From Promethearchaeota archaeon (lineage in GTDB: Archaea > Asgardarchaeota > Lokiarchaeia > Sigyniarchaeales > SOKP01), in assembly GCA_016839585.1 (NCBI GenBank), contig JAEOTZ010000001.1:3076-67075 (forward strand): a stretch of DNA of 64,000 nt, read 5' to 3'. Positions 4,840-43,586 of the stretch are shown in pieces (positions within the stretch are counted from its first letter, which is position 1; each line of letters opens with the position of its first letter). Under the pieces are notes generated by a model. The model was given only the letters and a program-made list of their open reading frames with translations, had not been told where the DNA came from and made no database searches. Both the position numbers and the translations under genes were made by a program.

Positions 4840-5307
4840 ATGAAATCTCTATTGGTCTTGTTTTCATATCATCATAAAAACACTGAAAAAATCGCTGATG
4901 TCTTCGTAAAAGTTCTTGATGCACAAATAAAAACCCCACAGCAAATAAACCCTGAGGAGCTTCAAGAGTATAGTCTAATAGGCTTTGGCTCAGGGATCTA
5001 TGGTGGAAAACACTATCAACTTCTTCTTGATCTTGCCGATACACTACCACAAGTCACCAACAGGAAAGCATTCATTTTTTCAACCAGTGCAATGACAGGA
5101 GAAGCCAAAGTCGCCAAAGATCACTCGCTGCTTAGGGAAAAACTGCAATCGAAAGGTTACATGATTGTTGATGAATTTAGTTGTAAAGGTTTTAACACAA
5201 ATAGTTTCCTAAAATATTTTGGGGGAATGAATAAGGGTAGACCGAATGCCGAAGACCTCAAACATGCGGAAGAATTTGCTCAGAACCTGAAGCAGAACCT
5301 GCAATAG
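4840..5307 (+). CDS. Flavodoxin-family protein
   Basis: About 155 aa. N-terminal LLVLFSYHHKNTEKIA and GFGSGIYGG loops resemble short flavodoxin-domain proteins. The antisense ORF 4790..5050 is judged spurious. Confidence 0.5.
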   Translation: MKSLLVLFSYHHKNTEKIADVFVKVLDAQIKTPQQINPEELQEYSLIGFGSGIYGGKHYQLLLDLADTLPQVTNRKAFIFSTSAMTGEAKVAKDHSLLREKLQSKGYMIVDEFSCKGFNTNSFLKYFGGMNKGRPNAEDLKHAEEFAQNLKQNLQ

Positions 5308-5630
5308 AAGTGAAACTTGAACACATGAATTTCCTTTGAAATTGGAATGGAAAGGTAAATTCAGAGTCTGCTTTCAATGAAAAATCCTTTGAAAAAATTA
5401 TAATGCTTAAGACGGGGATGGGGATGATAAAAGAACTAGTGATTTTTTTTATATATGGGGCGTTCTGCTTGGATTTATGTCATTATTAGAAGATAGATAA
5501 TTGAATTAGATATAATTTCTTATTATAATTTTCTGTTTAATTTTTAAGCTCTCTGTACTGTTCTAAATAAACATACCAAATGAAAATTCTGGAGCAGTTT
5601 GAAAGTAAGCTAACCACCGAACTTATAAAT

Positions 5631-6365
5631 TTAATGAGTCACTAGTTCTTTTTTAGCTTTTTTCATTGTTCTTGAGATTTTTTTTATGACTTTTTCATAC
5701 GGTAATATAAAACCATAAATTAATCCAAAAGATTTTAGAATTGATAAATGGATATCTTCGGACCAAGCTGCACAACAATCTTCCACAATAATTGTTTGAA
5801 ATCCATAATCATGTGCTTCTCGAGCAGTTGAATGGACACAAAAATTCGTCACAACTCCAGAAACTAGAATGGTTTCGATTTCCATATTTCTTAAGTAAGT
5901 GTCAAGCCTAGTTGAGATAAACGCTCCACTTGTATTTTTCTGTAATATGAAATCTCGATCTTCAGGCTTTAATTCTTCAATTATATCAGAGCTGGGGTGA
6001 GATATATGAGGAAACGCAACTTCTCCTACGAGATCTTTAGCTGTTTGATTTAAAATTTTTTGATTTTTTGGCAGATCACTCCCGTCAGGCATAAAACTTG
6101 AATATTTTGTGTATATTACTGTGATTTCAACTTCATGACAAAAGTTAATTAATTTTTGAAGATTTGGGATAACCTTTCTTTCTACTTCATTTACAAAATA
6201 ATCTAAGACTCCTGGAGCAACTTTGTTAAATGATTTATACGCAGCATAATCTTTCTTTAGTTGACATTTTTGCATATCAACAATAATCAATGCTGTTTTT
6301 GCAGGGATAATATCACCCATTAGTCCTTGGACAACTTTATATATCGTATTAAGCTTTTCTTCCAT
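5631..6365 (-). CDS. Isochorismatase-family cysteine hydrolase
   Basis: TALIIVDMQ and VSGVVTNFCVHSTAREA motifs (catalytic D, K, C pattern). Confidence 0.75.
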   Translation of the reverse strand: MEEKLNTIYKVVQGLMGDIIPAKTALIIVDMQKCQLKKDYAAYKSFNKVAPGVLDYFVNEVERKVIPNLQKLINFCHEVEITVIYTKYSSFMPDGSDLPKNQKILNQTAKDLVGEVAFPHISHPSSDIIEELKPEDRDFILQKNTSGAFISTRLDTYLRNMEIETILVSGVVTNFCVHSTAREAHDYGFQTIIVEDCCAAWSEDIHLSILKSFGLIYGFILPYEKVIKKISRTMKKAKKELVTH

Positions 6366-30951: not shown

Positions 30952-32949
30952 ATGTCTGATAATCAGACCACTATTAGAATAGGTGTGTATGTATGCAGGT
31001 GAGGAGTAAATATTGGAGCTACTGTAGATTGCAATGTTGTAAGAGATGCTGTTGAACACCTCTCAAATGTAGTAGTTGCTAAAGTAAATGATTTTACTTG
31101 TAGTGATCCTGGGCAACAAATTATTAAAAATGATATTCTGGAATTAGGTTTAAATAGAGTTGTTGTCGCTGCTTGTACTCCGAAAATTCATGAACCTACA
31201 TATCGAGCAGTTTTAGTTGAAGCAGGATTAAGTCCTTATTATTTTCAGATGGTCAATTTGCGTGAACATTGTTCATTTGTACATGCAAATGATAAGAAAA
31301 ATGCCACTAAAAAGGCTATAAGATTAGTACAAGCAGGAGTAAACCGTGCACGTGAACTAGAAAGTGTTCCTCGTAAAGAGATTCCAGTAAAAAGAGCAGC
31401 TTTAGTAATCGGAGCTGGAATTGCAGGAATGAATGCTGCCTTAGATTTAGCAAACCAAGGAATAAATGTGTATCTAATTGAAAAAGAGCCTACTATTGGT
31501 GGAAAAATGGCACAACTAGATAGAATTTATCCTACAGATGATTGTGGAATATGAGTTCTTGCTCCAATAATGGTAAATACTTACAAACATCCAAATATAA
31601 ATTTATATACATATAGCGATATTATCGAATTTAACGGTATTCCTGGTAATTATAAGTGTATAATAAGAAAAAATCCTCGTTATGTTGATGAAAGTAAATG
31701 TACTGGTTGTGGATTATGTACAACCAAATGCCCTATAACAATTCCTAATGACTTTGATAGAGGAATAGGCGATAGAGGTGCCATTTATATCCCTTTCCCA
31801 CAAGCTGTACCAAATTATGCAGTTATTGATAAAACTGTTTGTACTAATTGCAAAAATTGCCAAAGAATTTGCCCAGCTGAAGCGGTTGATTTTGATCAAG
31901 AACCAGAATATATAGACATAAATGTCGGAGCTGTAATTATTGCTACTGGGTATGATGAATATCCAATTATGGAAACTAATGATTATAATTATGGGATATC
32001 TCCTGATGTAATCACTCAAATAGAATTAGAACGGATTTTAAGTCCTATTGGTCCAACTGACGGGCATGTATATAGAATTTCTGATGGACAGATTCCAAAT
32101 ACAATTGTAATGATTCAATGTGTTGGTTCAAGATCTGTAAAAGAACTCCCTTATTGCTCAGCAGTATGTTGCAATGTGGCTCTTAAAAATGCACAGTTAT
32201 TAAAACAAGAATACCCTGAAATGGATGTTATTTTATTTTACATTGATATTAGGACATCAGATAAAGGAAATGAAGAATATTATAGAAGAATAAGAGATTT
32301 AGGGATTAGAATGATTAGAGGTAAAGTAGGAGAAATAGTAGATGACCCTGATACAAAAAAATTAATAATTCGGGCATTTTCATCATTAACCGGTGAAATT
32401 ATTAAAGTCAATGCTGATCTAGTTGTATTATCTACAGGTATGATCCCTTCAAAAGGAACTGCTGAAATAATAAATATTATAGGTTTAGGAACAGGTCCAA
32501 ATGGATTCTTAACTGAAATTCATGGATGTTTAAGTCCTCAAGAGACGACTAATATGGGAATTTACATTTGTGGATGTGCTACAGGACCAAAAAATATTCC
32601 CTATTCAGTATCGACAGCTTTAGCTGCAGCGAGTAAAGTTGCCACTCTGCTTTCTCATGATACAATAAATCAAGAATTAATTATTGCAGAAGTAGAGAAA
32701 AACCTCTGCATGGGATGCCACAGATGTGAAAAGGTTTGTTACTATGAAGCCATAAAAGTAGGGGAAGATAATATCGCTATTGTTGATGATTTGAAATGTA
32801 AAGGTTGTGGTGTGTGTATTACATCTTGTCCCGCTAGAGCAATTGATTTAAAATATTATAGAGATAAACAATTCATAGAAGAAATTAAAGGAATCGGTAG
32901 TAGTGAGATTAATTCAATTCAAAAAGCACAAAAAATTGAGGAAAATTAA
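30952..32949 (+). CDS. hdrA: HdrA-like flavoprotein, selenocysteine-containing (two in-frame UGA)
   Basis: One frame is open from the ATG at 30952 to the TAA at 32949 except for TGA at 31000-31002 and 31552-31554. RIGVYVCR-U-GVNIGA aligns to RIGVFICH-C-GINIGG, and YPTDDCGI-U-VLAP aligns to FPTNDCAI-C-ILAP, both in the CDS at 1..2994. Track ORFs 31249..31554 and 31570..32949 are fragments of this gene. Confidence 0.85.
31000..31002 (+). other. In-frame UGA, predicted Sec codon 1 of hdrA
   Basis: Aligns to the second Cys of the CHCG motif of the Cys paralog. Confidence 0.8.
31552..31554 (+). other. In-frame UGA, predicted Sec codon 2 of hdrA
   Basis: Aligns to the second Cys of the DCAIC motif of the Cys paralog. 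Confidence 0.8.
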
Positions 32950-32970
32950 ACAATTTAGAGGTTAATTCTT

Positions 32971-33408
32971 ATGATTCAAACAGAAAACAAAAATTTTAAA
33001 AAAGTAATTGCTTTTGGATGTGAAAAATGAGGTTATTCTGTTGCGGATTTAACTGGAACTACGAGAAAATCATATTCATCTGAATTTCACTTGATTAGAG
33101 TTAGATGTACGGGAAGAGTAGGTATTCATTTAATAATGAAGAGTTTCCTGAACGGAGCAGATGGGGTAGCAATAATTTCGTGAAAAGAAGGAGAATGTGA
33201 GTTTGGGAAAGGAAATATGAATACATATGAGCATGTGCTTTTTTTAAAAAAGTTATTCAAACATATTGGTATTTCTGAAGATCGCATTCAGCAATATTTC
33301 GTCTCTGCAGCGGATGTAGAAAAATTCATTCATTCTGTTGAGGATATTACAAAAAAAATTGAAGCTTTACCTCCTCTACCTAAAAAAATTTTACCCGAAA
33401 AAGAATGA
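32971..33408 (+). CDS. mvhD: MvhD/VhuD-like protein, selenocysteine-containing (two in-frame UGA)
   Basis: One frame is open from the ATG at 32971 to the TGA at 33406-33408, with in-frame TGA at 33028-33030 and 33181-33183. FGCEK-U-GYSVADL aligns to CCNW-C-SYAGADL, and IIS-U-KEGECEFGKGN aligns to VTG-C-HIGDCHYLKGN, both in the CDS at 3012..3443. Track ORF 33217..33408 is the C-terminal fragment. Confidence 0.85.
33028..33030 (+). other. In-frame UGA, predicted Sec codon 1 of mvhD
   Basis: Cys-aligned position (CNWC versus CEKU). Confidence 0.8.
33181..33183 (+). other. In-frame UGA, predicted Sec codon 2 of mvhD
   Basis: Cys-aligned position (GCHIGDC versus SUKEGEC). Confidence 0.8.
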
Positions 33409-33418
33409 TCCTTTCAAA

Positions 33419-33468
33419 AAAATCATAGTTGAGAGGAAACTATCCCATAGCAAGGGTTTTCGGATTTT
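33419..33468 (+). promoter_or_regulatory. Structured 3'UTR element, candidate SECIS (unverified)
   Basis: A 6-bp closing stem (AAAATC 33419-33424 / GATTTT 33463-33468) encloses two hairpins. One is ATAGTT/AACTAT (33425-33443). The other is a 3x G-C helix, CCC/GGG (33444-33456), with a 7-nt loop. It starts 11 nt after the mvhD stop. Confidence 0.3.
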
Positions 33469-33505
33469 ATATAATTAAATATTTATTTATAAAAAAATAA
33501 CAATT

Positions 33506-34996
33506 ATGAGTTCTGAAGGAAAATTTTCATGGGATTTTTTAAAAACAGTAGCAGATAGTTTAGATTCATATAGGGTTAGAGCTCTTATAGACGCAAAAGA
33601 AGATATAATAAATGCAGGAGTTTATGATGAAACTCAATACTACAATATCTTATTTAAGATGTTCAATGTGGAACAATCAAAATTTACATTATTCCATTTT
33701 TTAAATTCTAATCAGAATTTAAACTTAACTTCAATTAAAAATTTTTCTGAACAGAACTCAATTGAACTTAGAAAGGCTTTAAGTTTATTAGAATTATTAA
33801 AAAATGAAAAAAGAGTAATAGTAGAAGAAATATATGAAAAAATTAAGGGAGATGAAAATTCTCCAGATAAATTAATTTTTAAAGATTTATCGATAAAGAT
33901 TGATGGATATAATGTTTCAAAAATCCAGTCTATTTATGAACCTGTAAAAGTAATATTTGATTCAAACATTTGCTCTGGTTGTAGTTTATGTGCAGGAATC
34001 TGCCCTGTAAATTGCCTTAACATTTATAATGGGTTCGGTAAAATCGAAGAAGATAAATGCATTCGATGTGGATTATGTTATTCTGTTTGCCCAAGATCTT
34101 TTTTACCTATGAATGTTCTAAATATGTATCAAGATAACTGCTCTGAATTTAAAGTTTATACCAACATTGGTCCGTATAAAGAAATCTATTCTGCTAGGAC
34201 AAAACTTACAGAAATTGCCAAAGTATGTCAAGATGGAGGAATTACTAGTACAGCTCTGTATTATCTATTTGATAAAAAAATGATTGATCTCGCTTTAGGA
34301 GCAAAAATAAGTCAAACAATATGGCGCCCTGAGCCGATATTACTAAAAAACAAAGAAGACATCCTATTAACTACAGGAACGAAATATGTAAATAATCCTA
34401 CATTAAAAGTGCTAAGCCAATTAAATAAGGATAATAAATCATTAGCAATTGTAGGAGTACCATGCATGATGCAAGCATTATTAAAATCAGAAATTTTTAA
34501 CATAAATATACCTTCTTTAAGTAATGTTAAATATAGGATTGGTATTTTTTGCATGGAATCCTTTTCTTATGAATCAATCTTAAAGATCTGTGAATTATTA
34601 AAAGTAAATATTAAAGATATTAGAAAAATGGATATTAACAAGGGTAAATTTTTTATTTACACAGTAAATGATGAATATAATATACCCATTAAAGAAATTT
34701 CTCATTTAGCCCGTCCAGATTGTGAAGTTTGTTATGACTTAACCTCTGAATCTGCTGATATTTCTATAGGATCTATAGGTTCTCCTTCTGGCTGGAATAC
34801 TGTAATAATTAGAACAGATAAAGGGAAAGAATTATATGATAGCTTAATTGCCAATAGTTTGATTGAATCAAAACCAATTGAAGATGTAAAACCTGGTTTG
34901 TCACTACTTCAAAAAGTAGCGGGGTCAAAAAAAAATAACTGCAAAAAACATGTTACTTCAAGATTAAACGAGAGCTTACGAATTCCTAATTACTAG
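33506..34996 (+). CDS. FrhB/FdhB-family (F420-hydrogenase/dehydrogenase beta-like) flavo-Fe-S protein with N-terminal extension and 2x[4Fe-4S]
   Basis: CSGCSLCAGICP and CIRCGLCYSVCP, then QDGGITSTALYYL, VGVPCMMQAL, IGIFCMESF and CEVCYDLT, which are typical of FrhB_N/FrhB_C. Confidence 0.75.
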   Translation: MSSEGKFSWDFLKTVADSLDSYRVRALIDAKEDIINAGVYDETQYYNILFKMFNVEQSKFTLFHFLNSNQNLNLTSIKNFSEQNSIELRKALSLLELLKNEKRVIVEEIYEKIKGDENSPDKLIFKDLSIKIDGYNVSKIQSIYEPVKVIFDSNICSGCSLCAGICPVNCLNIYNGFGKIEEDKCIRCGLCYSVCPRSFLPMNVLNMYQDNCSEFKVYTNIGPYKEIYSARTKLTEIAKVCQDGGITSTALYYLFDKKMIDLALGAKISQTIWRPEPILLKNKEDILLTTGTKYVNNPTLKVLSQLNKDNKSLAIVGVPCMMQALLKSEIFNINIPSLSNVKYRIGIFCMESFSYESILKICELLKVNIKDIRKMDINKGKFFIYTVNDEYNIPIKEISHLARPDCEVCYDLTSESADISIGSIGSPSGWNTVIIRTDKGKELYDSLIANSLIESKPIEDVKPGLSLLQKVAGSKKNNCKKHVTSRLNESLRIPNY

Positions 34997-35111
34997 ATTT
35001 TTTGCATAGGATAAATCCCGCTAATTTCTATGTTCTTCATGGCTGCAACCATAAAATTAATATTAAATTTGACATTTAAAATTATATTATTCAAAAATTT
35101 ATCGATTTGAA

Positions 35112-35606
35112 ATGAGTTCATTATCACCGATAAGACCAAAAAACTTTAGAGAAAAAGTATTCTTTCGTAAACTTCGATCTCAAGTGGATGGTAACGCAAA
35201 AGTAGAATATGGGTTAACTCAGATTAAAGGAATTGGAAGAAGACTTGCTCAAGCATTAATTAGAGTAACAGATATTAACCCTAATATGAGAATTGGAGCT
35301 CTTCCTGAAAAGGAGCTTAACAGAATTGAAGAAATAATATTAAACCCTGTCGAAAATGGAATCCCAAATTGGATGGTAAATCGAATGAAAGATTTAAGAG
35401 ATGGAACAGACAAACATGTAATCGGAAGTCAATTAGAAATCAGCGTTAAAAGAGACATAGACAGAATGAAAAGGATGAAAAGCTATAAAGGAGTAAGACA
35501 TCACTTAAAATTAAAAGTAAGAGGACAAAAAACTAAAAGCACTGGAAGACATGGTTTAGTAGTCGGAGTTCTAAGAAGGAAAAAGAGATTTCAACAAAAA
35601 GATTAG
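35112..35606 (+). CDS. rps13: 30S ribosomal protein uS13
   Basis: LTQIKGIGRRLAQALI and the KSYKGVRH...RGQKTKSTGR motifs. Confidence 0.9.
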   Translation: MSSLSPIRPKNFREKVFFRKLRSQVDGNAKVEYGLTQIKGIGRRLAQALIRVTDINPNMRIGALPEKELNRIEEIILNPVENGIPNWMVNRMKDLRDGTDKHVIGSQLEISVKRDIDRMKRMKSYKGVRHHLKLKVRGQKTKSTGRHGLVVGVLRRKKRFQQKD

Positions 35607-35616
35607 GGGAAAAGTA

Positions 35617-36144
35617 ATGGGAGATCCAAGACGTCTGAAAAAAAAATATAAAAAGCCTAAACACCCATTTCAAAAAGATAGAATGATGGAAGAACTGGAA
35701 TTTCTGGGAAAATACGGACTTAGAAATAAAAGAGAATATTGGAAATCACGAACTATCCTTGGAAATTGGCGAAATATTGCTCGACAATCTCGAACCTTAT
35801 CAAAAGAAAGAGCTTTAGAAGCACAACAAACTCTAATTCGTAAACTAGATCGATTAGGTGTTATTGGATCAGAAGCAGAATTTGAAGATATCCTCCTCCT
35901 TACAGTAGAAGATGTTCTTAAAAGAAGGTTACAAACATTAACCTATGAAAAAGGACTTGCAAGTACAATCTATCAAGCACGACAATTTATTACTCATGGA
36001 CACATCCAAGTCGCTGGCAAAAAAATAAACGCACCTTCTTATCTCGTAAAAAGAGCCGAAGAAGATTTAATCGGATTCGCTCCAAATAGCCCCCTTTCAG
36101 AAGTAAAAACAAATACAAAACCAAAAGCAAAAGAAAAAAGTTAA
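35617..36144 (+). CDS. rps4: 30S ribosomal protein uS4
   Basis: MGDPRRLKKKY opening, YGLRNKREYW, and the S4 RNA-binding domain (RRLQTLTYEKGLASTIYQARQFITHGHI). Confidence 0.9.
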   Translation: MGDPRRLKKKYKKPKHPFQKDRMMEELEFLGKYGLRNKREYWKSRTILGNWRNIARQSRTLSKERALEAQQTLIRKLDRLGVIGSEAEFEDILLLTVEDVLKRRLQTLTYEKGLASTIYQARQFITHGHIQVAGKKINAPSYLVKRAEEDLIGFAPNSPLSEVKTNTKPKAKEKS

Positions 36145-36174
36145 GTAAGTAGAAAAAAGATAAGTAGTAAAAAC

Positions 36175-36258
36175 ATGAAAAGAGTAATCGTTCACTTTTA
36201 CTCCTAATAGCCCCCTCTCAAAACAAAAAGAAACTACAACTAAATATAAGGAATACTA
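36175..36258 (+). pseudogene. Duplicated, diverged rps4 3'-end fragment
   Basis: The 27-codon ORF MKRVIVHFTPNSPLSKQKETTTKYKEY parallels the S4 C-terminus KRAEEDLIGFAPNSPLSEVKTNTKPKAKEKS. The nucleotide core at 36201-36220 matches 36080-36099 at 18/20. Confidence 0.6.
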
Positions 36259-36446
36259 GACCTTACTTAGTATAGATCTTGCTTTTCTAAATTCTGATCT
36301 TCTTAAATTGAAGTAAGAAAACAACAATAAAAAACCAAACAATTAATCTTTGTTCCGTTTCTAAAAAAATCCCAAATTCCATTAATCCTTTTTTTAAAAA
36401 TTGGATCAATAAAAAAAAAAAATTATTTTAATTTGATACTTTTGAA

Positions 36447-38714
36447 TTAGGTACTCCCACTTATACGTTTCCTTCTAAGCAACAGACCTATTATAACTCC
36501 AGCTACTCCTATTCCAGCTGCGATTGATGTGCCTGTTATAATGACCATTGTATTATCTCCATTACCGCCATTCCTGCTTACATCCATAGTAATAACCGTT
36601 AAATCAGCCTGCATTGAATTATCATTTTCCGAATTTGGCCTTAATGAGCCATCTTTTGAACTATAAGTTTCATCTATGCTATTATAAGGATCAACAGTTA
36701 AACTTAAGGTAAATGTTCCCGTTTGTCCAATTGGGGGACAGCTAACAGCAATATACTCTGTTTCATCAACATCAAGAGTTAGTGTTGAAAAGGTATTATC
36801 ATATAAGGTTAAATCAAGTTCTTCACATCTTACGATGATAATAACTCCATGCGCTTTCCAAATACCATTATTCGTTATCGAAAAATCAATAATAAAAGAT
36901 GTTTTGTTATATGCAATTACTGAGGACAAATGCGAAACTTTCAAATTTGGCATAGGGTACCATGAAGCGTCAAGAGCATTTGTACCATAACTAGCCTCAT
37001 CAGAATCACTGAAAGTATCACCATCAGTATCCCATCCCAGATACATAAGGGGCTTTGTATCATATTTATCAACTGGAAAGGAATGAGGAGTATCCCCTAT
37101 ACCATCCATTGGGAGAAGATCGTATCCAGAATAATTATCCCAATAATTCCCAAATATTCCATTGTCCCATTGATTATTTCCCTCATCTCTAACATGATAA
37201 ACATTTCCAATAAAACTATTTAAGTAAAAGAGATTTCCATCATGAGTACTACCTGAAAGGACTCCATATTGATTGTTGTAATATATGGCATTTCCTATGA
37301 TTATATTCTTATCGCAATTCTCTCTTAACCTTAATCCGGCTTCACCGTTATTATATAGAATGTTCCCCGAGACTGTGTTCTCATGGCATATATCCCGTAA
37401 AAGTATCCCGTCCTCACCATTGTCGTTTGCGGTGTTTCCCGAGATGATGTTATAGTTGCAATTATCACGTAGTCGTATTCCATGAACTCTACTATTGGTT
37501 ACGGTATTGCCCGATATAGTGTTGTTATTGCAATTAGTATAAAAAAGTATCCCGTGATCATTACTATTGGTTACAGCGTTTCCCGAGATGGTGTTGTTAA
37601 CGCAAGAATTTACTAAATCTATCCCATTATCTAAATTGTTGTCTACGACGTTTCCCGAGATGGTGTTATTAACACAATTATTTTCTAAATATATCCCGTT
37701 CCCATGATTGCTGTCTACGCTGTTTCCCGAGATGGTGTTGTCGTCACAATAATACCATACATATATCCCATGAATAATATTGTTGTTTGCGGTGTTTCCC
37801 GAAACGATGTTGTTATGAGTATTATCTTGCAGGAATATCCCACACCCATTGTTATTTGCGGTGTTTCCCGAGATGGTGTTGCCACCGCATTGATTAGCTA
37901 GATATATCCCATTTGCATTGTTATTTACAGTGTTTCCTGAGATCGTATTTTTATCACAATTAGTGAAAAATATTATCCCGTTGCTCTCACTGTCTACGAT
38001 GTTTCCCGAGATGGTGTTATTATCAGAATTATCATATATACTCATCCCATATAAATTATCATTTACGGTGTTTCCTGAAATGATGTTATTGTCACATCCG
38101 TACCTAAATCTTATCCCAGCTTCTGTATTATCGTTTATGGTGTTTTCTAAGATAGAGTTATAGATGCAGCTAATATAAAGACGTATCCCATGATTTGCAT
38201 TATTGTTTGCGGTGTTTCCCGAGAGAGTGTTATTTTCGCAATTTGAATGTAAACTAATCCCCATACCATTGTTATTTGAACAATTATTATTTGTTAAGGT
38301 TCCATTATTTGTGTTTTCCAATTTGATTCCTGCGTCTGAGCTCCCAGTACCCGCATTGTAAGCCGTGCAATTTGTGATGATAAAATACTCATTTTTGGAA
38401 TTATTTATGAAAATTCCACTTCCCGTAGGCGAAGTACTTGCGTCAATAATAACGTCCTCAATTGTGTAGGGATTACCCCACGAACCATCACCGCTACACC
38501 AAGCATAGGTAGTTGCTGTATCTGACCAATTACCATCAATATGTATAAAATTCGTTGTCCAGTAACCTGAGCTTTTTGGACTTTTTAAATTCGTCTCGTC
38601 TCGAATCTCTATAGTATAATTAAAGCTGCTAACGGCTGTAATCGCAAAAAAAATTCCTAAAATTATTAATACATTTATTTTTTTCCTATTAGATTTCATT
38701 CTTTTTTCTACCAA
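36447..38714 (-). CDS. Right-handed parallel beta-helix repeat (PbH1/NosD-like) surface protein with N-terminal signal/TM and C-terminal TM anchor
   Basis: About 15 tandem units of roughly 23 aa (NNTISGNT.NNN..GI.L). N-terminal INVLIILGIFFAITAVSS; C-terminal IAAGIGVAGVIIGLLLRRKR. Confidence 0.75.
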   Translation of the reverse strand: MVEKRMKSNRKKINVLIILGIFFAITAVSSFNYTIEIRDETNLKSPKSSGYWTTNFIHIDGNWSDTATTYAWCSGDGSWGNPYTIEDVIIDASTSPTGSGIFINNSKNEYFIITNCTAYNAGTGSSDAGIKLENTNNGTLTNNNCSNNNGMGISLHSNCENNTLSGNTANNNANHGIRLYISCIYNSILENTINDNTEAGIRFRYGCDNNIISGNTVNDNLYGMSIYDNSDNNTISGNIVDSESNGIIFFTNCDKNTISGNTVNNNANGIYLANQCGGNTISGNTANNNGCGIFLQDNTHNNIVSGNTANNNIIHGIYVWYYCDDNTISGNSVDSNHGNGIYLENNCVNNTISGNVVDNNLDNGIDLVNSCVNNTISGNAVTNSNDHGILFYTNCNNNTISGNTVTNSRVHGIRLRDNCNYNIISGNTANDNGEDGILLRDICHENTVSGNILYNNGEAGLRLRENCDKNIIIGNAIYYNNQYGVLSGSTHDGNLFYLNSFIGNVYHVRDEGNNQWDNGIFGNYWDNYSGYDLLPMDGIGDTPHSFPVDKYDTKPLMYLGWDTDGDTFSDSDEASYGTNALDASWYPMPNLKVSHLSSVIAYNKTSFIIDFSITNNGIWKAHGVIIIVRCEELDLTLYDNTFSTLTLDVDETEYIAVSCPPIGQTGTFTLSLTVDPYNSIDETYSSKDGSLRPNSENDNSMQADLTVITMDVSRNGGNGDNTMVIITGTSIAAGIGVAGVIIGLLLRRKRISGST
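37280..38290 (-). repeat. Coding tandem repeat, about 69-bp period (beta-helix coils)
   Basis: The recurrent plus-strand motif GTTTCCCGAGATGGTGTT occurs near 37433, 37575, 37645, 37724, 37795, 37864, 37934, 38002, 38068 and 38214. Coordinates are approximate. Confidence 0.7.
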
Positions 38715-39011
38715 AAACTAATTTTGGCTTATAATTAAAATTAACATTATTGTATTTAATATCTTTGTATATAATTCTTTCAAATTTCTAAGATGAAAAT
38801 AACCTACCTTTTGATTTTGGAAGTGAATAGTATGGAAACGAATGGATAGACCGTTTAATTCTCTAAATTAAAAACTTAAATAAGCTAAATATCTCAATAC
38901 TTAGAAATAAGAACTTAAGAGTAAATAATCAAAAAATTAATATTCTCTGAATTATTTATAAATCCATTATAAAAAATCATCGATAAATAACTCTCTAAGT
39001 GAGTACAAAAG

Positions 39012-39407
39012 ATGAGTAGCAAAGATATGAAATGGGCAATTATTCACATCTTTTCGAGTTATAATAATACCATCGTGACTGCTACAGACCTTAGCGGAGC
39101 AGAAACCTTCGCAAAATGCTCTGGTGGCATGGTAGTAAAAGCTGACCGTGATGAAAGCAATCCCTACGCCGCAATGCAGTGCGGTTTCCGGGTCGCTAAT
39201 GAGCTCAAAGATAAAGGTGTTAGAGGGATACATATCAAAGTAAGAGCCCCCGGTGGTAATAAATCGCAAACTCCCGGTCCAGGTGCTCAAGCATGCATCC
39301 GTGCCCTCGCACGCTCCGGTCTACAAGTTGGAAGGATTGAAGAAGTTACACCTAAGTCGCATGACCACTGTAGAAGGAAGGGGGGCCATCGTGGTCGCCG
39401 TGTATAA
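39012..39407 (+). CDS. rps11: 30S ribosomal protein uS11
   Basis: [45 protein letters not shown] and the ...[11 protein letters not shown] tail. The antisense ORF 38967..39290 is spurious. Confidence 0.9.
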
Positions 39408-39448
39408 AAATCTCTGAGGAGATTATCTCTTTTAAAGATCTAGCGAAT

Positions 39449-39952
39449 CTATTCATTTGAATTTGATCTTTCTTTATTAGAGAACCTTTTAGTAAATTTT
39501 TCTTTCTGTTCATAATACCAATTTATATAATCATGCTGTCTTCTGTCTTCTTCACTTCCATGGGAAGGATACCAGATAAGATCTTTTTCTTGACACTCAA
39601 TACAATACCACGTCTCATGGAGGGGGATATATACCATATCTCTATCACTATGCGTGCATAGAGGGCACACACAAATAGATTTACTTAATGCACTGCGGAG
39701 CGAATGTTTTGTTCCTTCTAAATAGAACACTTCTTTCCGTTCTTCTGGAGTTAAATCTAGAATTGCACCGTATAGGCTAGAAAAAGTACTTAAAATATTA
39801 ATCTCATCATAAACAGCTCTTATTATAATTTCTCTAAGGTTATTTCTTATCTTTTTAAGTTGTTCATTGCGTATAATGACTCTTCGCTCATCTTTCATAA
39901 TTATAGTAAACCTATAGAAAAAAAAATATTTAAATAATGGGTCTTTGCTCAT
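39449..39952 (-). CDS. Hypothetical Cys-rich (zinc-finger-like) protein
   Basis: CVCPLC...H and WYCIEC motifs. The true start may be the internal MKDERR. Confidence 0.35.
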   Translation of the reverse strand: MSKDPLFKYFFFYRFTIIMKDERRVIIRNEQLKKIRNNLREIIIRAVYDEINILSTFSSLYGAILDLTPEERKEVFYLEGTKHSLRSALSKSICVCPLCTHSDRDMVYIPLHETWYCIECQEKDLIWYPSHGSEEDRRQHDYINWYYEQKEKFTKRFSNKERSNSNE

Positions 39953-39991
39953 CCTTTAAAATTAGAGAAAAGGTATGAAAAAAAAAAAAAT

Positions 39992-41593
39992 TTAAATAAT
40001 GGATAAATAACCACTATTTAATAGTTGATGCGTTCCCAAAAAGAGTCTATTTAAGATGTAAGAGTTTAAAATTGGTGCTGGTCTTCCTTTATTAATCCAT
40101 TCTTGGATTATATTTCTTATTTCTTGTTCTATATGACTCTCGGGAACATTTTTGAAGAACCTATCGATTACATAGTTGTTTCCGTCTTCATCAGTGAAAT
40201 ATTTGTTAATGAAATTAGCTATCCCATATTCAATCAAGAAATTCCGTCGTTTAAGATACTCCTGCCAATTATCTTCCCAATCTTTTACGTTGCATTTATA
40301 GTATTGAGGACATTCTAGACCAAAATTTAATCTATGTTGAATTAAATCTAAAATTAAATCTGTTTTTCCTTCAAGTTTACTATGATTCATATGCATAACA
40401 AGGGCTAATCTATTTACATCGATTGTGAGTTTATCATTAATAAAAATGTGATGTCTTTCAAAAGTAAAGGATTCCATAATGCTTGTTTTTTTGAAAGCTT
40501 CGGGTTCAATGGGATCAAGGTTTAGAACATTAAGACCTAAATCACGGATGATAAGCATTACTACATGAAACTTTATAGTATTAAAAACATACCAACTCGG
40601 ATGATAAACTCTAGGTAAAGTTGGATATAGATTTCGTTGTTCTATATACTTCCATACTTGCTCAAAAGTTTCTATATATTCTTCACTAGGTAATAGTGAA
40701 ATCAATTCTTTTAATAGATGCATCATACCATCCCATGAATATTCCCAACCTTTATTCAGTCTTCCAAATGTGTCATATTTTAACATTTTTTGAGCATGTT
40801 TTAAGAGGACTGGACCTTTCTTAGCTTTGGATAAGGCGAACCATATGTATAAGGTTAAATCATATTCAGGTTTAAAATAAGTAGTTCCTATATCATGTTT
40901 ATCACTGATGTATTTCTCATCAAAGGGGTTGCTAAATATAAAGTCTTCTATTAATTTTTTCACTTTACTTTTTATATTATCTAATGATTGTTGATCGACT
41001 TTCTTGATATCTCTAACTTTTTGAATAAAATCCTGGATAGTTAAAAAATGAATTTTGTACATAAAGCTGAAGAGTGTAGATTTAGTAAATCTACGGAATT
41101 CGAAATCACCTTTAATATGAGAATCTTTCAATGTTCTAGCTCTTTTAAAAAGAATCCTTGATAGATCAGTGTCGAAAACTCTAATATTGGGGAAATATCC
41201 TTTAATAATATCTTTTATATCATCAAAGAATTTTCTTTTAATGCTTTTTTCGACTGTAGATGAGTGAGAAGGCAAGTTTGTTTCGGTAGGAAAAGCGATG
41301 TTATAAAGATTTTGAAATTTGTTTTCAATTGTATTCCAAGAATCGATTAATAGATCTTTGTATCTCTCTGACAATCTAATATATAAATCATCAAAAGTTT
41401 TTTTCACTGGATAATGCGTTTTTAGTGAATTCTTTTTATCCTTTATCCAATTATAAGTGAAGCCAAGTTTGTTTGACAGTTCCATGTATGAGGGTCTTTC
41501 GAGAATGCGTTTTTGGAACATGATTTCTTTTAGATGGTCAACGAGTTCTATGTAAGCGTTTCTAATTTCGGGCAAATTTACTTGTTTGCTCAT
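39992..41593 (-). CDS. Hypothetical 533-aa protein
   Basis: Long clean ORF. Only a weak His-rich stretch (FERHHIF...HMNHSKLEG) was noted, and no family is assigned. Confidence 0.4.
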   Translation of the reverse strand: MSKQVNLPEIRNAYIELVDHLKEIMFQKRILERPSYMELSNKLGFTYNWIKDKKNSLKTHYPVKKTFDDLYIRLSERYKDLLIDSWNTIENKFQNLYNIAFPTETNLPSHSSTVEKSIKRKFFDDIKDIIKGYFPNIRVFDTDLSRILFKRARTLKDSHIKGDFEFRRFTKSTLFSFMYKIHFLTIQDFIQKVRDIKKVDQQSLDNIKSKVKKLIEDFIFSNPFDEKYISDKHDIGTTYFKPEYDLTLYIWFALSKAKKGPVLLKHAQKMLKYDTFGRLNKGWEYSWDGMMHLLKELISLLPSEEYIETFEQVWKYIEQRNLYPTLPRVYHPSWYVFNTIKFHVVMLIIRDLGLNVLNLDPIEPEAFKKTSIMESFTFERHHIFINDKLTIDVNRLALVMHMNHSKLEGKTDLILDLIQHRLNFGLECPQYYKCNVKDWEDNWQEYLKRRNFLIEYGIANFINKYFTDEDGNNYVIDRFFKNVPESHIEQEIRNIIQEWINKGRPAPILNSYILNRLFLGTHQLLNSGYLSII

Positions 41594-41898
41594 TTTATTA
41601 TCAACGTTTTTATTTTTTTTTCCATCCTTTGGGTTTTATCAGTCGCTATAATCGCGCAGACTGATGGGTAAGATTACAATAACGCGCAATCTTATAAAAT
41701 TAATATCAAAGTTTAATATATATATGTATTCCTCGAATAGACTGCTCTGTGAAGTTTAAATACTATTAAACTAGTTCATATTTAATTAAACCTCACTTTT
41801 CGTGTACACTTTTTAAATTTAGAAATCTTAGGTTTCGCTCGTTTTTATTACAAACAAGAAAAAGTGTAGTTTAAAAACTTTTAAACTGAAAAGTTATT

Positions 41899-42288
41899 GT
41901 GCTGTCAAAAAAGGAAATGAAGCAATTCTATCCTCATCTTATCTCGCGGATACTGTTATTTCTACGGCAACAGCGACATGTTAAAGGGGAGGTGCTTACA
42001 GAAGATCTTATTAAGAAGTTTAATAAATCGAAGAGTAGAATTTCTCAAGCTCTTTCTTTTTTAGCAAGTAAAGAATATATTGAGAGAAATTATGTTAATA
42101 ATTTTAATAATCAAGGATCCCGTCATAAGATTTCCCTTACTCCCAAGGGTTTAGAGATTACTGAAGCTATTCTAATGGAGGGATTAGATCCACTCGAGAA
42201 AAAGGTCATTGAAGCATTAAAAAACCGTTCTAATTATTTATGTAAAAATAAGGTGACTCCTACCGGGAACTCCCTACCTACGAGTTAA
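41899..42288 (+). CDS. Winged-helix (MarR/PadR-like) DNA-binding protein
   Basis: FNKSKSRISQALSFLASKEYIER looks like an HTH recognition helix followed by a wing. GTG start. Confidence 0.45.
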   Translation: MLSKKEMKQFYPHLISRILLFLRQQRHVKGEVLTEDLIKKFNKSKSRISQALSFLASKEYIERNYVNNFNNQGSRHKISLTPKGLEITEAILMEGLDPLEKKVIEALKNRSNYLCKNKVTPTGNSLPTS

Positions 42289-42389: not shown

Positions 42390-43586
42390 TTATGACTCTA
42401 GATAATTAATTATCGAAGATATTATCTCAATTAAATCTAAATCAGAGGTAGAACTAAGTTGTTCTATTTTTAATCTTAATTTTCTAATAATAGGCAATTT
42501 ATCTTCTTCAATTTTAGTCGAATATAATAAATTCCTAAACATTTTTAGTGAATTTATATCTTTTTTATCTATTGCTTCACAAATCTCCGTAGAAATGCTC
42601 TCAAACTTTCCACATTTATATAAAATTAAAGCTATATCGTTTTTTTTATATCCCCTTTCATATAGCTTTTCGAAATTACTATAATTGATTTTTCTTATTA
42701 AACTTACAAGTTTAGGATTTAATACAATCATCCTGATAGTTCCTACAATTATTCTTATTATCTCATTATCTTTTCCTAAAATGTATTTATTTATAGTTTT
42801 AGCATAATCAGTTATTATATCAAGTTCATCTTCAAACATATCTTCTTTATATGAAATTTTCGCAAATTCATTGTGAATCTTATTTAACATTGGTATTAAA
42901 TTCATAGGAGATAATTGTGAATTCCTAATCATATCTAAATAATTAAAAATTAGTTCAAAATCGATTTTTTTCCTTTTTTGGGATCTTTCTTTCTCATTAA
43001 TATATAAATCTTCCTCTTCCTCTTCATCAATCATTCTAATGTAGTCACGTTCAATTATATTATTTGCACCTAATTTTTCATATCTTAGAGTGGCTTTTAA
43101 TTGAGCATAAATATTTCCTATTATACTTTCAACAGTTTTTTGTTCAGTTTCATCTAAATAACTATTATGAGCAATTTTATTTCTTAAATCATACAAATCT
43201 TCTAATTTTGATGTAATCCAAACTTCTTTAGGAAAATATTCTTTAAAGATTTCCCAATTGCTACTTATTATAGTTTTTAGATCTATTAAATCCGCGTAAA
43301 ATAGATCAGAATCCCCCCTTATAGATAACCATCTCTTAATTCTCTCTTCTTCTTTTCTATCATTAATTTTATCTTGAATTTTTTTATTCATATTTAGTTT
43401 TTTCCAATAATTTAAACCAAATTTAACCTTAGCTACATTTTCTATAAATAATCTGAAGAAATTCTCAAAAATGAAAAGATTATAATACGCCTCTACCATT
43501 TCTTTTCCTTTAAGGAAAATTTCAGTTGGTATTTCAATTTGAAACTTTTGTTTTAAATTCTTTTTTTTTATTAATTTTGGATTCAT
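42390..43586 (-). CDS. HEPN-domain protein (Swt1-like HEPN N-terminal domain plus unknown C-terminal half)
   Basis: FENFFRLFIENV helix and LRNKIAHN (R-x4-H) at about residue 155. Confidence 0.55.
   Translation of the reverse strand: MNPKLIKKKNLKQKFQIEIPTEIFLKGKEMVEAYYNLFIFENFFRLFIENVAKVKFGLNYWKKLNMNKKIQDKINDRKEEERIKRWLSIRGDSDLFYADLIDLKTIISSNWEIFKEYFPKEVWITSKLEDLYDLRNKIAHNSYLDETEQKTVESIIGNIYAQLKATLRYEKLGANNIIERDYIRMIDEEEEEDLYINEKERSQKRKKIDFELIFNYLDMIRNSQLSPMNLIPMLNKIHNEFAKISYKEDMFEDELDIITDYAKTINKYILGKDNEIIRIIVGTIRMIVLNPKLVSLIRKINYSNFEKLYERGYKKNDIALILYKCGKFESISTEICEAIDKKDINSLKMFRNLLYSTKIEEDKLPIIRKLRLKIEQLSSTSDLDLIEIISSIINYLES

Follow-up and report, generated by a model that had tools for sequence, protein, structure and literature searches.

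The rps4–rps11 locus and its interruption

The window analysed here is the whole stretch of 64,000 nucleotides (64 kb) of contig JAEOTZ010000001.1 from an Asgard archaeon (Promethearchaeota). Its DNA is AT-rich, with 30% GC, and the homologues of its uS4 protein carry source labels of Promethearchaeota or of other Asgard groups. The ribosomal-protein mini-operon rps13-rps4-rps11 is broken in this window between rps4 and rps11, which lie 2867 nucleotides (nt) apart versus 13 nt in relatives. The intervening DNA carries a gene for a β-helix protein and, at its left edge, two short remnants: a stub of the rps11 5′ end and a relic of the 3′ end of an rps4 gene. As argued below, the arrangement is probably the scar of an insertion of foreign Asgard DNA.

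The mini-operon opens with rps13 (uS13; 35112-35606, + strand), an open reading frame (ORF) with a Pfam Ribosomal_S13 match on the identical Logan contig and 96% nucleotide identity to the locus L085 of a close relative. It is followed by rps4 (uS4; 35617-36144, +), which is intact, codes for 175 amino acids (aa), ends in the native C-terminus of the 175-aa class (...GFAPNSPLSEVKTNTKPKAKEKS), and shares 96.6% nucleotide identity with L085 up to and beyond the stop codon. The stop codon is also the start of the left copy of a flanking repeat (36142-36195, +). This copy, the stub, is a decayed version of the rps4 stop codon, a 15-nt spacer, and rps11 codons 1-12. The relic comes immediately after (36196-36244, +). 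It is a 49-nt patch that aligns without gaps to the rps4 3′ end of another uS4 class, the 172-aa class, and its frame (36197-36259) reads FTPNSPLSKQKETTTKYKEY. The tail of that frame (YKEY) is nonhomologous and passes into an AT-rich spacer with T and A tracts (together 36245-36446, GC 0.22). The β-helix gene, hereafter the cargo, is on the opposite strand (36447-38714, −), and a second AT-rich spacer of 281 nt (38715-38995, GC 0.21) separates it from the divergently oriented rps11. The right copy of the flanking repeat (38996-39047, +) consists of TAA, a 13-nt spacer (38999-39011) that contains a Shine-Dalgarno-like (SD-like) GTGAG, and the opening 36 nt of the functional rps11. The latter gene (uS11; 39012-39407, +) is an intact ORF with 100% amino acid identity to L085. 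Taken from the rps4 stop to the rps11 start, the lineage-specific segment measures ~2.85 kb (36145-39011), and the insert proper ~2.8 kb (36196-38995).

The region was singled out by a first-pass annotation made from the sequence alone, which noticed a short repeat at and just after the end of rps4, exactly where the ribosomal-protein operon breaks. Both the repeat and its position are confirmed. The core CTCC(A/T)AATAGCCCCCT(T/C)TCA occurs at 36080-36099, within rps4, and at 36201-36220, within the relic, with 18 of the 20 nt matching. These are its only two matches in the 64-kb window at three mismatches or fewer, and none is expected by chance (100 shuffles). The third copy or att-like core that the annotation proposed to look for is thus missing from the window at this threshold. 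A local alignment of the rps4 tail with the following 156 nt scores 41, against a mean of 18.0 (standard deviation 2.7) and a maximum of 33 in 2000 shuffles. The annotation also described a 27-codon ORF (36175-36258) with a uS4-like end, which is right for the peptide and wrong for the ORF. The peptide ...FTPNSPLSKQKETTTKYKEY* is indeed encoded, in a frame of 21 codons, but this frame lacks a start codon and an in-frame TAA (36185-36187) lies before it. The ATG at 36175 is in a different frame, which ends at a stop at 36205-36207 after 10 codons (MKRVIVHFYS*). The reading frame of rps4 itself meets stops at 36205-36210, and there is no + strand ORF of at least 20 aa between rps4 and position 36300.

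Origins of the relic, the stub, and the cargo

Asgard uS4 proteins can be divided by their C-terminus into a class of 167 aa ending in ...SAAKEKS, a class of 172 aa ending in ...SKPKETTTKSEA, and a small class of 175-179 aa ending in ...SE.KT.TK.KAKEKS. The last of these contains the resident gene and its nearest relatives (P0001-P0009), and the relic peptide falls in the 172-aa class. At the DNA level, the relic matches the rps4 3′ ends of L029, L095, and L165 at 45 of 49 positions (92%), and that of L096 at 44 of 49, without any gap. With the resident rps4 end it reaches 34/40 only if gaps are allowed, and ~71% in a hand-counted ungapped alignment. Of the four positions at which it differs from L029, three are synonymous in the frame of rps4, and over its full length the resident rps4 shares only 75-76% identity with these genes. 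Hence, judged by its sequence, the relic is an imported fragment of the rps4 of another Asgard lineage and not, as had been proposed, a diverged duplicate of the resident 3′ end. Situated at the rps4-proximal edge of the insert, it begins 52 nt downstream of the rps4 stop, and its homology ends ~12 nt short of the stop codon of the 172-aa class. A DNA pattern specific to the relic has no match in viral contigs and none in metagenome contigs. A general pattern for the rps4 core finds 76 metagenome loci with a single match each, that is, without a second copy in any of them. The relic is a nonfunctional, noncoding recombination scar. Scars of this general kind are known, and the structure of this one is unusually easy to read.

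The stub has a different affinity. It aligns end to end with the right copy of the repeat (36142-36195 with 38996-39047) at 41 of 54 positions, with one 2-nt gap. The score of 42 exceeds the maximum of 36 in 5000 shuffles and makes this the best non-self match in the window on either strand. The longest run of identity between the copies is ~7 nt (by eye on the alignment). In the stub, the rps11 ATG has become ATA, KWAIIH has become KRVIVH, and the spacer has 15 nt instead of 13. Outside the window it is best matched by the junction between rps4 and rps11 in the resident clade (L085, again 41/54) and not by that of the 172-aa class, where the two genes overlap in TAATG and no spacer exists. 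Compared with L085, the right copy shows no difference in its rps11 part and three in its spacer. It follows from the alignment that the insert is bracketed by two copies of the stop codon, the spacer, and the rps11 5′ end, not of the rps4 3′ end. Stub and relic join within TTTT (36196-36199), one base out of frame. These four bases are common to both parents, as rps11 has ATC TTT TCG at codons 13-14 and the 172-aa-class rps4 has GAT TTT ACC; four T's in DNA with 70% AT are weak evidence.

A comparison with relatives, one of the checks proposed by the annotation, gives the state of the site before the insertion. Nine loci (L085, L086, L087, L088, L089, L097, L098, L126, and L153), with uS4 proteins 86-96% identical to the resident one, span an uninterrupted rps4-13 nt-rps11. 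None of them has the stub, the relic, or a β-helix gene at the junction. A tenth, L090, is a partial contig of 638 nt that ends just after rps4 and contains no relic. One of the nine, L098 (SRR14699970), belongs to the same run series as the window. Both occupied and empty sites are found among relatives. The annotation had named a duplicate in uninterrupted relatives as the observation that would speak against a scar, and these relatives lack it. As for which of the two C-termini is ancestral, which it had also left to comparison, the intact one is of the type of P0001-P0009, is embedded in DNA 96.6% identical to L085, and is native, the relic being the import. Because the relatives have rps4-13 nt-rps11 without insert or relic, the 175-aa-class terminus is ancestral for the clade, the ancestral arrangement is rps13-rps4-TAA-13 nt-rps11, and the ~2.85 kb are lineage-specific.

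The same comparison shows a sharp change of divergence at the junction. At third positions of conserved codons, identity to L085 is 0.968 in FrhB, 0.949 in rps13, and 0.941 in rps4 on the left side, and 0.833 in rps11 and 0.772 in the next gene (533 aa) on the right. The latter gene (39992-41593) codes for a protein only 67% identical to its L085 counterpart. In agreement with this, blastn of window positions 33960-36195 and 38996-42264 against L085 gives 96.6% identity for the left flank and 83.8% for the right. Because third-position identity falls from 0.94-0.97 to 0.77-0.83, these comparisons place a recombination breakpoint at the rps4/rps11 junction. The jump fits a crossover at the junction, without identifying the anchor. 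L097 is itself a mosaic, its rps13 being 80% and its rps4 94% identical to the window, and inter-lineage recombination seems to be frequent in this operon.

The cargo gene codes for a protein of 750/755 aa with right-handed β-helix repeats of the NosD type, flanked by hydrophobic segments at both the N- and the C-terminus (Pfam NosD, E = 1.3e-57; Beta_helix, E = 2e-45). The gene contains DNA repeats of 69-72 nt, and its product is probably a surface protein. Its GC content at third codon positions (GC3) is 0.324, the highest among the 31 long ORFs of the window (mean 0.207, standard deviation 0.039; z ~3). There is no paralogue of it in the window, and its nearest homologue among 5.8 billion proteins (P0122) is only 50% identical and lies in another context. 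The inserted DNA is foreign to the recipient lineage, because the relic is 92% identical to the 172-aa class, the cargo has the highest GC3 of the 31 ORFs, and the insert is absent from relatives. Neither of the two spacers of the insert has significant similarity to any fetched locus. The left one probably contains, by eye, the terminators of rps4 (T7 at 36388-36394) and of the β-helix gene (A-tract at 36411-36422). The right one has TATA-like boxes at 38955-38962 and 38967-38974 (by eye), and its 281 AT-rich nt, which come with the insert, are the presumed new promoter of rps11, a gene that keeps its SD-like spacer GTGAG. The upstream region of rps11 was also considered as a copy of the rps13 promoter and rejected, since its score of 36 does not stand above those of other AT-rich tiles (34-35). 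A scan for σ70 promoters and hairpin terminators gave counts equal to those of shuffles, its model being uninformative for an archaeon.

In L091 (3927-9218), the gene for P0122 lies just after a set of HdrA-like, FlpD, and FrhB-like genes, on the same strand and without ribosomal genes between. The same set precedes the β-helix gene in the window (31570-38714). Two further loci, L005 and L088, have a β-helix gene just 3′ of rps11, and in L015 one follows rps4.

Proposed insertion mechanism and its alternatives

The reading favoured here, with a probability of roughly 0.6, is that the locus is a scar left by foreign Asgard DNA inserted in the very beginning of rps11. The segment of ~2.8 kb (36196-38995) that entered consists of a foreign rps4 end fragment, a spacer, the β-helix gene on the opposite strand, and an AT-rich region. 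Its left junction would lie in rps11 codon 13/14, joined at the TTTT microhomology. The stop codon, the spacer, and rps11 codons 1-12 are now duplicated on both sides, the left copy being a dead stub. rps4 retains its own native terminus, and rps11 retains an intact ribosome-binding spacer and start. The latter gene would now be read from a promoter inside the insert, and no insert-encoded enzyme would have taken part.

Two routes could lead to this structure. One is a single Campbell-type crossover of a circularised foreign fragment in which a spacer and rps11 5′ end were joined to an rps4 3′ end. In Campbell-type insertion-duplication, circular DNA with an internal or 5′ fragment of a gene enters by one crossover, which gives the layout observed here: gene, fragment copy, insert, fragment copy, and rest of the gene, with a truncated stub on one side. 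Here, the necessary circular intermediate is not observed, and the homology is both short (~54 nt) and imperfect. In the other route, an illegitimate insertion, mediated by microhomology or facilitated by homology, would have duplicated the target. Passages of PMC5361080, which cites de Vries & Wackernagel 2002, Prudhomme et al. 2002, and Meier & Wackernagel 2003, and of PMC3240628 describe how transformable bacteria incorporate foreign DNA by homology-facilitated illegitimate recombination (HFIR). The resemblance lies in foreign DNA beside a conserved gene usable as homologous anchor, in an opposite end joined at a very short microhomology, and in the dispensability of an element enzyme. On the other hand, HFIR was shown experimentally in bacteria, whereas here it is proposed for an uncultured Asgard archaeon. 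HFIR also removes recipient DNA as a rule, while at this locus 52-54 nt of the target are duplicated and the anchor is uncertain. A further parallel is provided by the orphaned or displaced 3′ gene ends of Rhs, contact-dependent inhibition, and type VI secretion system effector loci (Kirchberger et al. 2017, PMC5361080), where a conserved gene is likewise followed by the leftover 3′ end of another allele, read as a trace of the recombination that brought the downstream cargo. There, the orphan is the displaced former end of the resident gene and often comes with a functional immunity gene, whereas here the resident end is in place and the orphan is foreign, only 49 nt long, and derived from a ribosomal protein gene.

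Several observations weigh against the insertion of one foreign segment as just described. The sequence cannot separate the two routes, and the microhomology on which the left junction relies is only 4 nt of T in AT-rich DNA. A donor locus, with a 172-aa-class rps4 followed by this β-helix gene, was not found, and a chimeric query of 51 aa for a uS4 ending in ...KYKEY returned one uninformative match. The stub is of the resident-clade type (spacer and 12 codons up to His), and yet it adjoins a relic of the 172-aa-class type, so that the two seem to come from different sources or from more than one event. The stub is 24% diverged from its partner while the relic is almost undecayed, although ~5 of the differences of the stub could be attributed to lineage rather than to decay. 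Because the stub is resident-type and looks older than a relic of the 172-aa class, these data suggest more than one event or an unsampled mosaic donor.

The first alternative is that of a site-specific integrative element, of which the insert would be the remnant. Elements that insert in a gene end and bring a replacement copy include e14 and phage 21 at icd of Escherichia coli, those of the tRNA-targeting integrases of archaea and bacteria, and the casposons at the 3′ end of EF-2. With these the locus shares a partial copy of a gene end beside the insert, direct repeats of the target that bracket it, and a site occupied in the window lineage and empty in close relatives. The same junction also holds different cargo in other Asgard lineages, two of them with an rps11 5′ stub (see following). 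The recombinase would have acted in trans or been lost, the 52-54-nt copies would be attL and attR, and imprecise excision from a previous host would yield the captured piece of a flanking gene, that is, the rps4 patch. Yet neither the insert nor the nine ORFs on its right side yield an integrase or transposase in a Pfam scan. The cargo and these ORFs match NosD/Beta_helix, wHTH, HEPN_Swt1, GNAT, or nothing, and no such enzyme is found in the cargo of the interrupted loci L012, L015, L022, L148, and L154. There is no exact att core at the ends of the insert, the repeat search revealed neither terminal inverted repeats nor any other repeat of note in its surroundings, and the window contains no tRNA gene. 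Furthermore, the other interrupted sites hold unrelated cargo, namely an ICMT-like gene, a Zn-ribbon paralogue, or a toxin-antitoxin pair together with a CRISPR array, and viral contigs do not contain the relic pattern. What is duplicated is the rps11 5′ end with its spacer; the rps4 fragment has strayed in from another lineage. We therefore regard an integrative element as unlikely. In its specific form, put forward by the first-pass annotation, of an element that integrates in the rps4 3′ end and supplies the terminus, the idea is rejected, as neither an integrase nor an exact core nor an element-supplied terminus was found. The rps4 end was not rebuilt from an element copy, since the intact end is of the native clade type and the foreign relic is on the near side. 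What survives of the annotation is the insertion scar at the operon break, at the left edge of a ~2.85-kb insert that relatives lack, and not the replacement terminus.

The other alternatives fare worse. A local tandem duplication of the resident rps4 3′ end, spacer, and rps11 5′ end, followed by divergence and later by an unrelated insertion of the β-helix gene, would produce exactly the novel junction observed (rps4, spacer, rps11 5′, rps4 3′), and would account for a stub of resident-clade type. It is very improbable given the much better match of the relic to the 172-aa class than to the resident end, the synonymous nature of three of its four differences from L029, which indicates that it evolved as a functional gene end elsewhere and not by decay, and the absence of any duplication in relatives. 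It is hardly credible that the segment has a function, whether it encodes a small protein, extends uS4 by read-through, or acts as a terminator or structured regulatory RNA. The relic frame is open over 21 codons, with a nearly intact uS4-like tail, in what would be the 3′ untranslated region of rps4. This frame is startless after an in-frame stop, the ATG at 36175 leads only 10 codons, and the rps4 frame is closed at 36205-36210, while the region 36120-36320 shows no unusual RNA fold (z = −0.67 for stability against shuffles), no Rfam family is found in the window, and the segment is missing from all close relatives and thus is not conserved. An equally scant probability is given to an assembly chimera of co-occurring Asgard populations sharing rps4 k-mers, which could be suspected because the window comes from a metagenome-assembled genome (MAG) and the uninterrupted L098 from the same run series. 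Against it, the 801 nt from 35900 to 36700, covering rps4, stub, relic, and the 3′ end of the β-helix gene, are identical in four independent Logan assemblies of different runs, and the Logan contig L001 spans the entire insert and reproduces the right junction exactly. The 24% divergence of the stub from the real rps11 start also argues against a mis-join of resident reads.

If the favoured insertion of foreign DNA is right, the scar documents at base resolution that DNA passed between distinct lineages of Asgard archaea (Promethearchaeota) and entered a core ribosomal-protein operon while leaving both flanking genes undamaged. Junctions that can be read in this way, with the target duplicated and a fragment of a foreign orthologue retained, are seldom available from uncultured archaea, and such traces could help to infer gene flow in the closest prokaryotic relatives of eukaryotes.

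The rps4/rps11 junction in other Asgard genomes

Examination of ~50 Asgard rps4 loci shows that the window is not an isolated case, as the rps4/rps11 junction is interrupted in ~8 of them, not counting the window. This amounts to about one sampled locus in six. The interrupting DNA varies. In L022, rps4 is followed by clustered regularly interspaced short palindromic repeats (CRISPR) on both sides of a MNT/HEPN gene pair, and in L017 by 357 nt in which a single, degenerate copy of this repeat occurs. In L015 there are a chagasin-like gene and a β-helix gene, and no rps11 within 6 kb. L012 has unknown ORFs, L148 and L156 an unknown protein of 233 aa, L154 an ICMT/PEMT-like membrane protein, and L159 a paralogue (61% identical) of the Zn-ribbon gene that is normally downstream of rps11. 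The junction thus appears to be a recurrent insertion hotspot in Asgard genomes, a pattern that may outweigh the single relic in usefulness.

Some of these loci also have the stub. In L159 (reverse complement 5048-5714), a clean stub of 34 nt, made of the spacer and the first 22 nt of rps11 and ~88% identical, comes right after the rps4 stop. L154 (reverse complement ~484-2591) probably has one of ~40 nt, 47 nt past the rps4 stop. No relic of an rps4 3′ end is found in L012, L015, L017, L022, L148, L154, L156, or L159. Because a stub is present in L159 and probably in L154, and a second relic is found neither in these loci nor in the 76 metagenome loci, the stub architecture recurs, and the foreign rps4 patch is so far unique to the window. 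The recurrence of stubs would be explained if only events that spare both essential genes survive. A bolder view is that the spacer and the first dozen rps11 codons are a dedicated Asgard landing site, used by an unrecognised integrase-independent or trans-acting mechanism that duplicates the rps11 5′ end and shuttles cassettes between lineages. This is a decidedly unlikely proposition. If true, the cassettes would include β-helix surface proteins, CRISPR arrays, and toxin-antitoxin pairs, and the 172-aa-class patch would be a passenger from a previous host.

The CRISPR repeat of L022 (a Promethearchaeota MAG, JABXKB010000072; 1052-3830) is GTTCTTTTTTAACTAGAAATAGATTGAAAC, with spacers of ~36 nt. 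The rps4-rps11 spacer of L017 (1349-1706) is apparently a remnant of such an array, and the repeat is absent from the window. In L148, L156, and L159, which have two different cargos, one can identify by eye an element of ~50 nt, GAAATC(A/G)TAAAACTTTTTTT..TAATAATATTA.TTAT.ACAT, located ~60-110 nt 5′ of rps11; possibly the inserts brought it along as a promoter or terminator.

Among the neighbours of the mini-operon, a protein of 167 aa with CxCPxC...WYCxxC motifs and without Pfam hit is encoded directly 3′ of rps11 in convergent orientation (39449-39952, −). It is kept downstream of rps11 in many Asgard lineages (at least 16 loci, 57-89% identical) and appears to be a fixed, uncharacterised neighbour of this operon. 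The rps11 gene is much GC-richer than its neighbours in every lineage examined (window 39012-39407; L005-L089), with a GC content of 0.44-0.51 in genomes of ~30% GC and a GC3 of 0.24-0.44, compared with a GC3 of 0.17-0.26 in the adjacent rps4. The region to the right of rps11 is variable and codes in the window for a small winged-helix protein (41899-42288, +) and for a protein with a Swt1-like HEPN domain (42390-43586, −; E = 7e-6, just under the Pfam cut-off). These two genes may be defence- or toxin-related and lie in a fast-evolving island.

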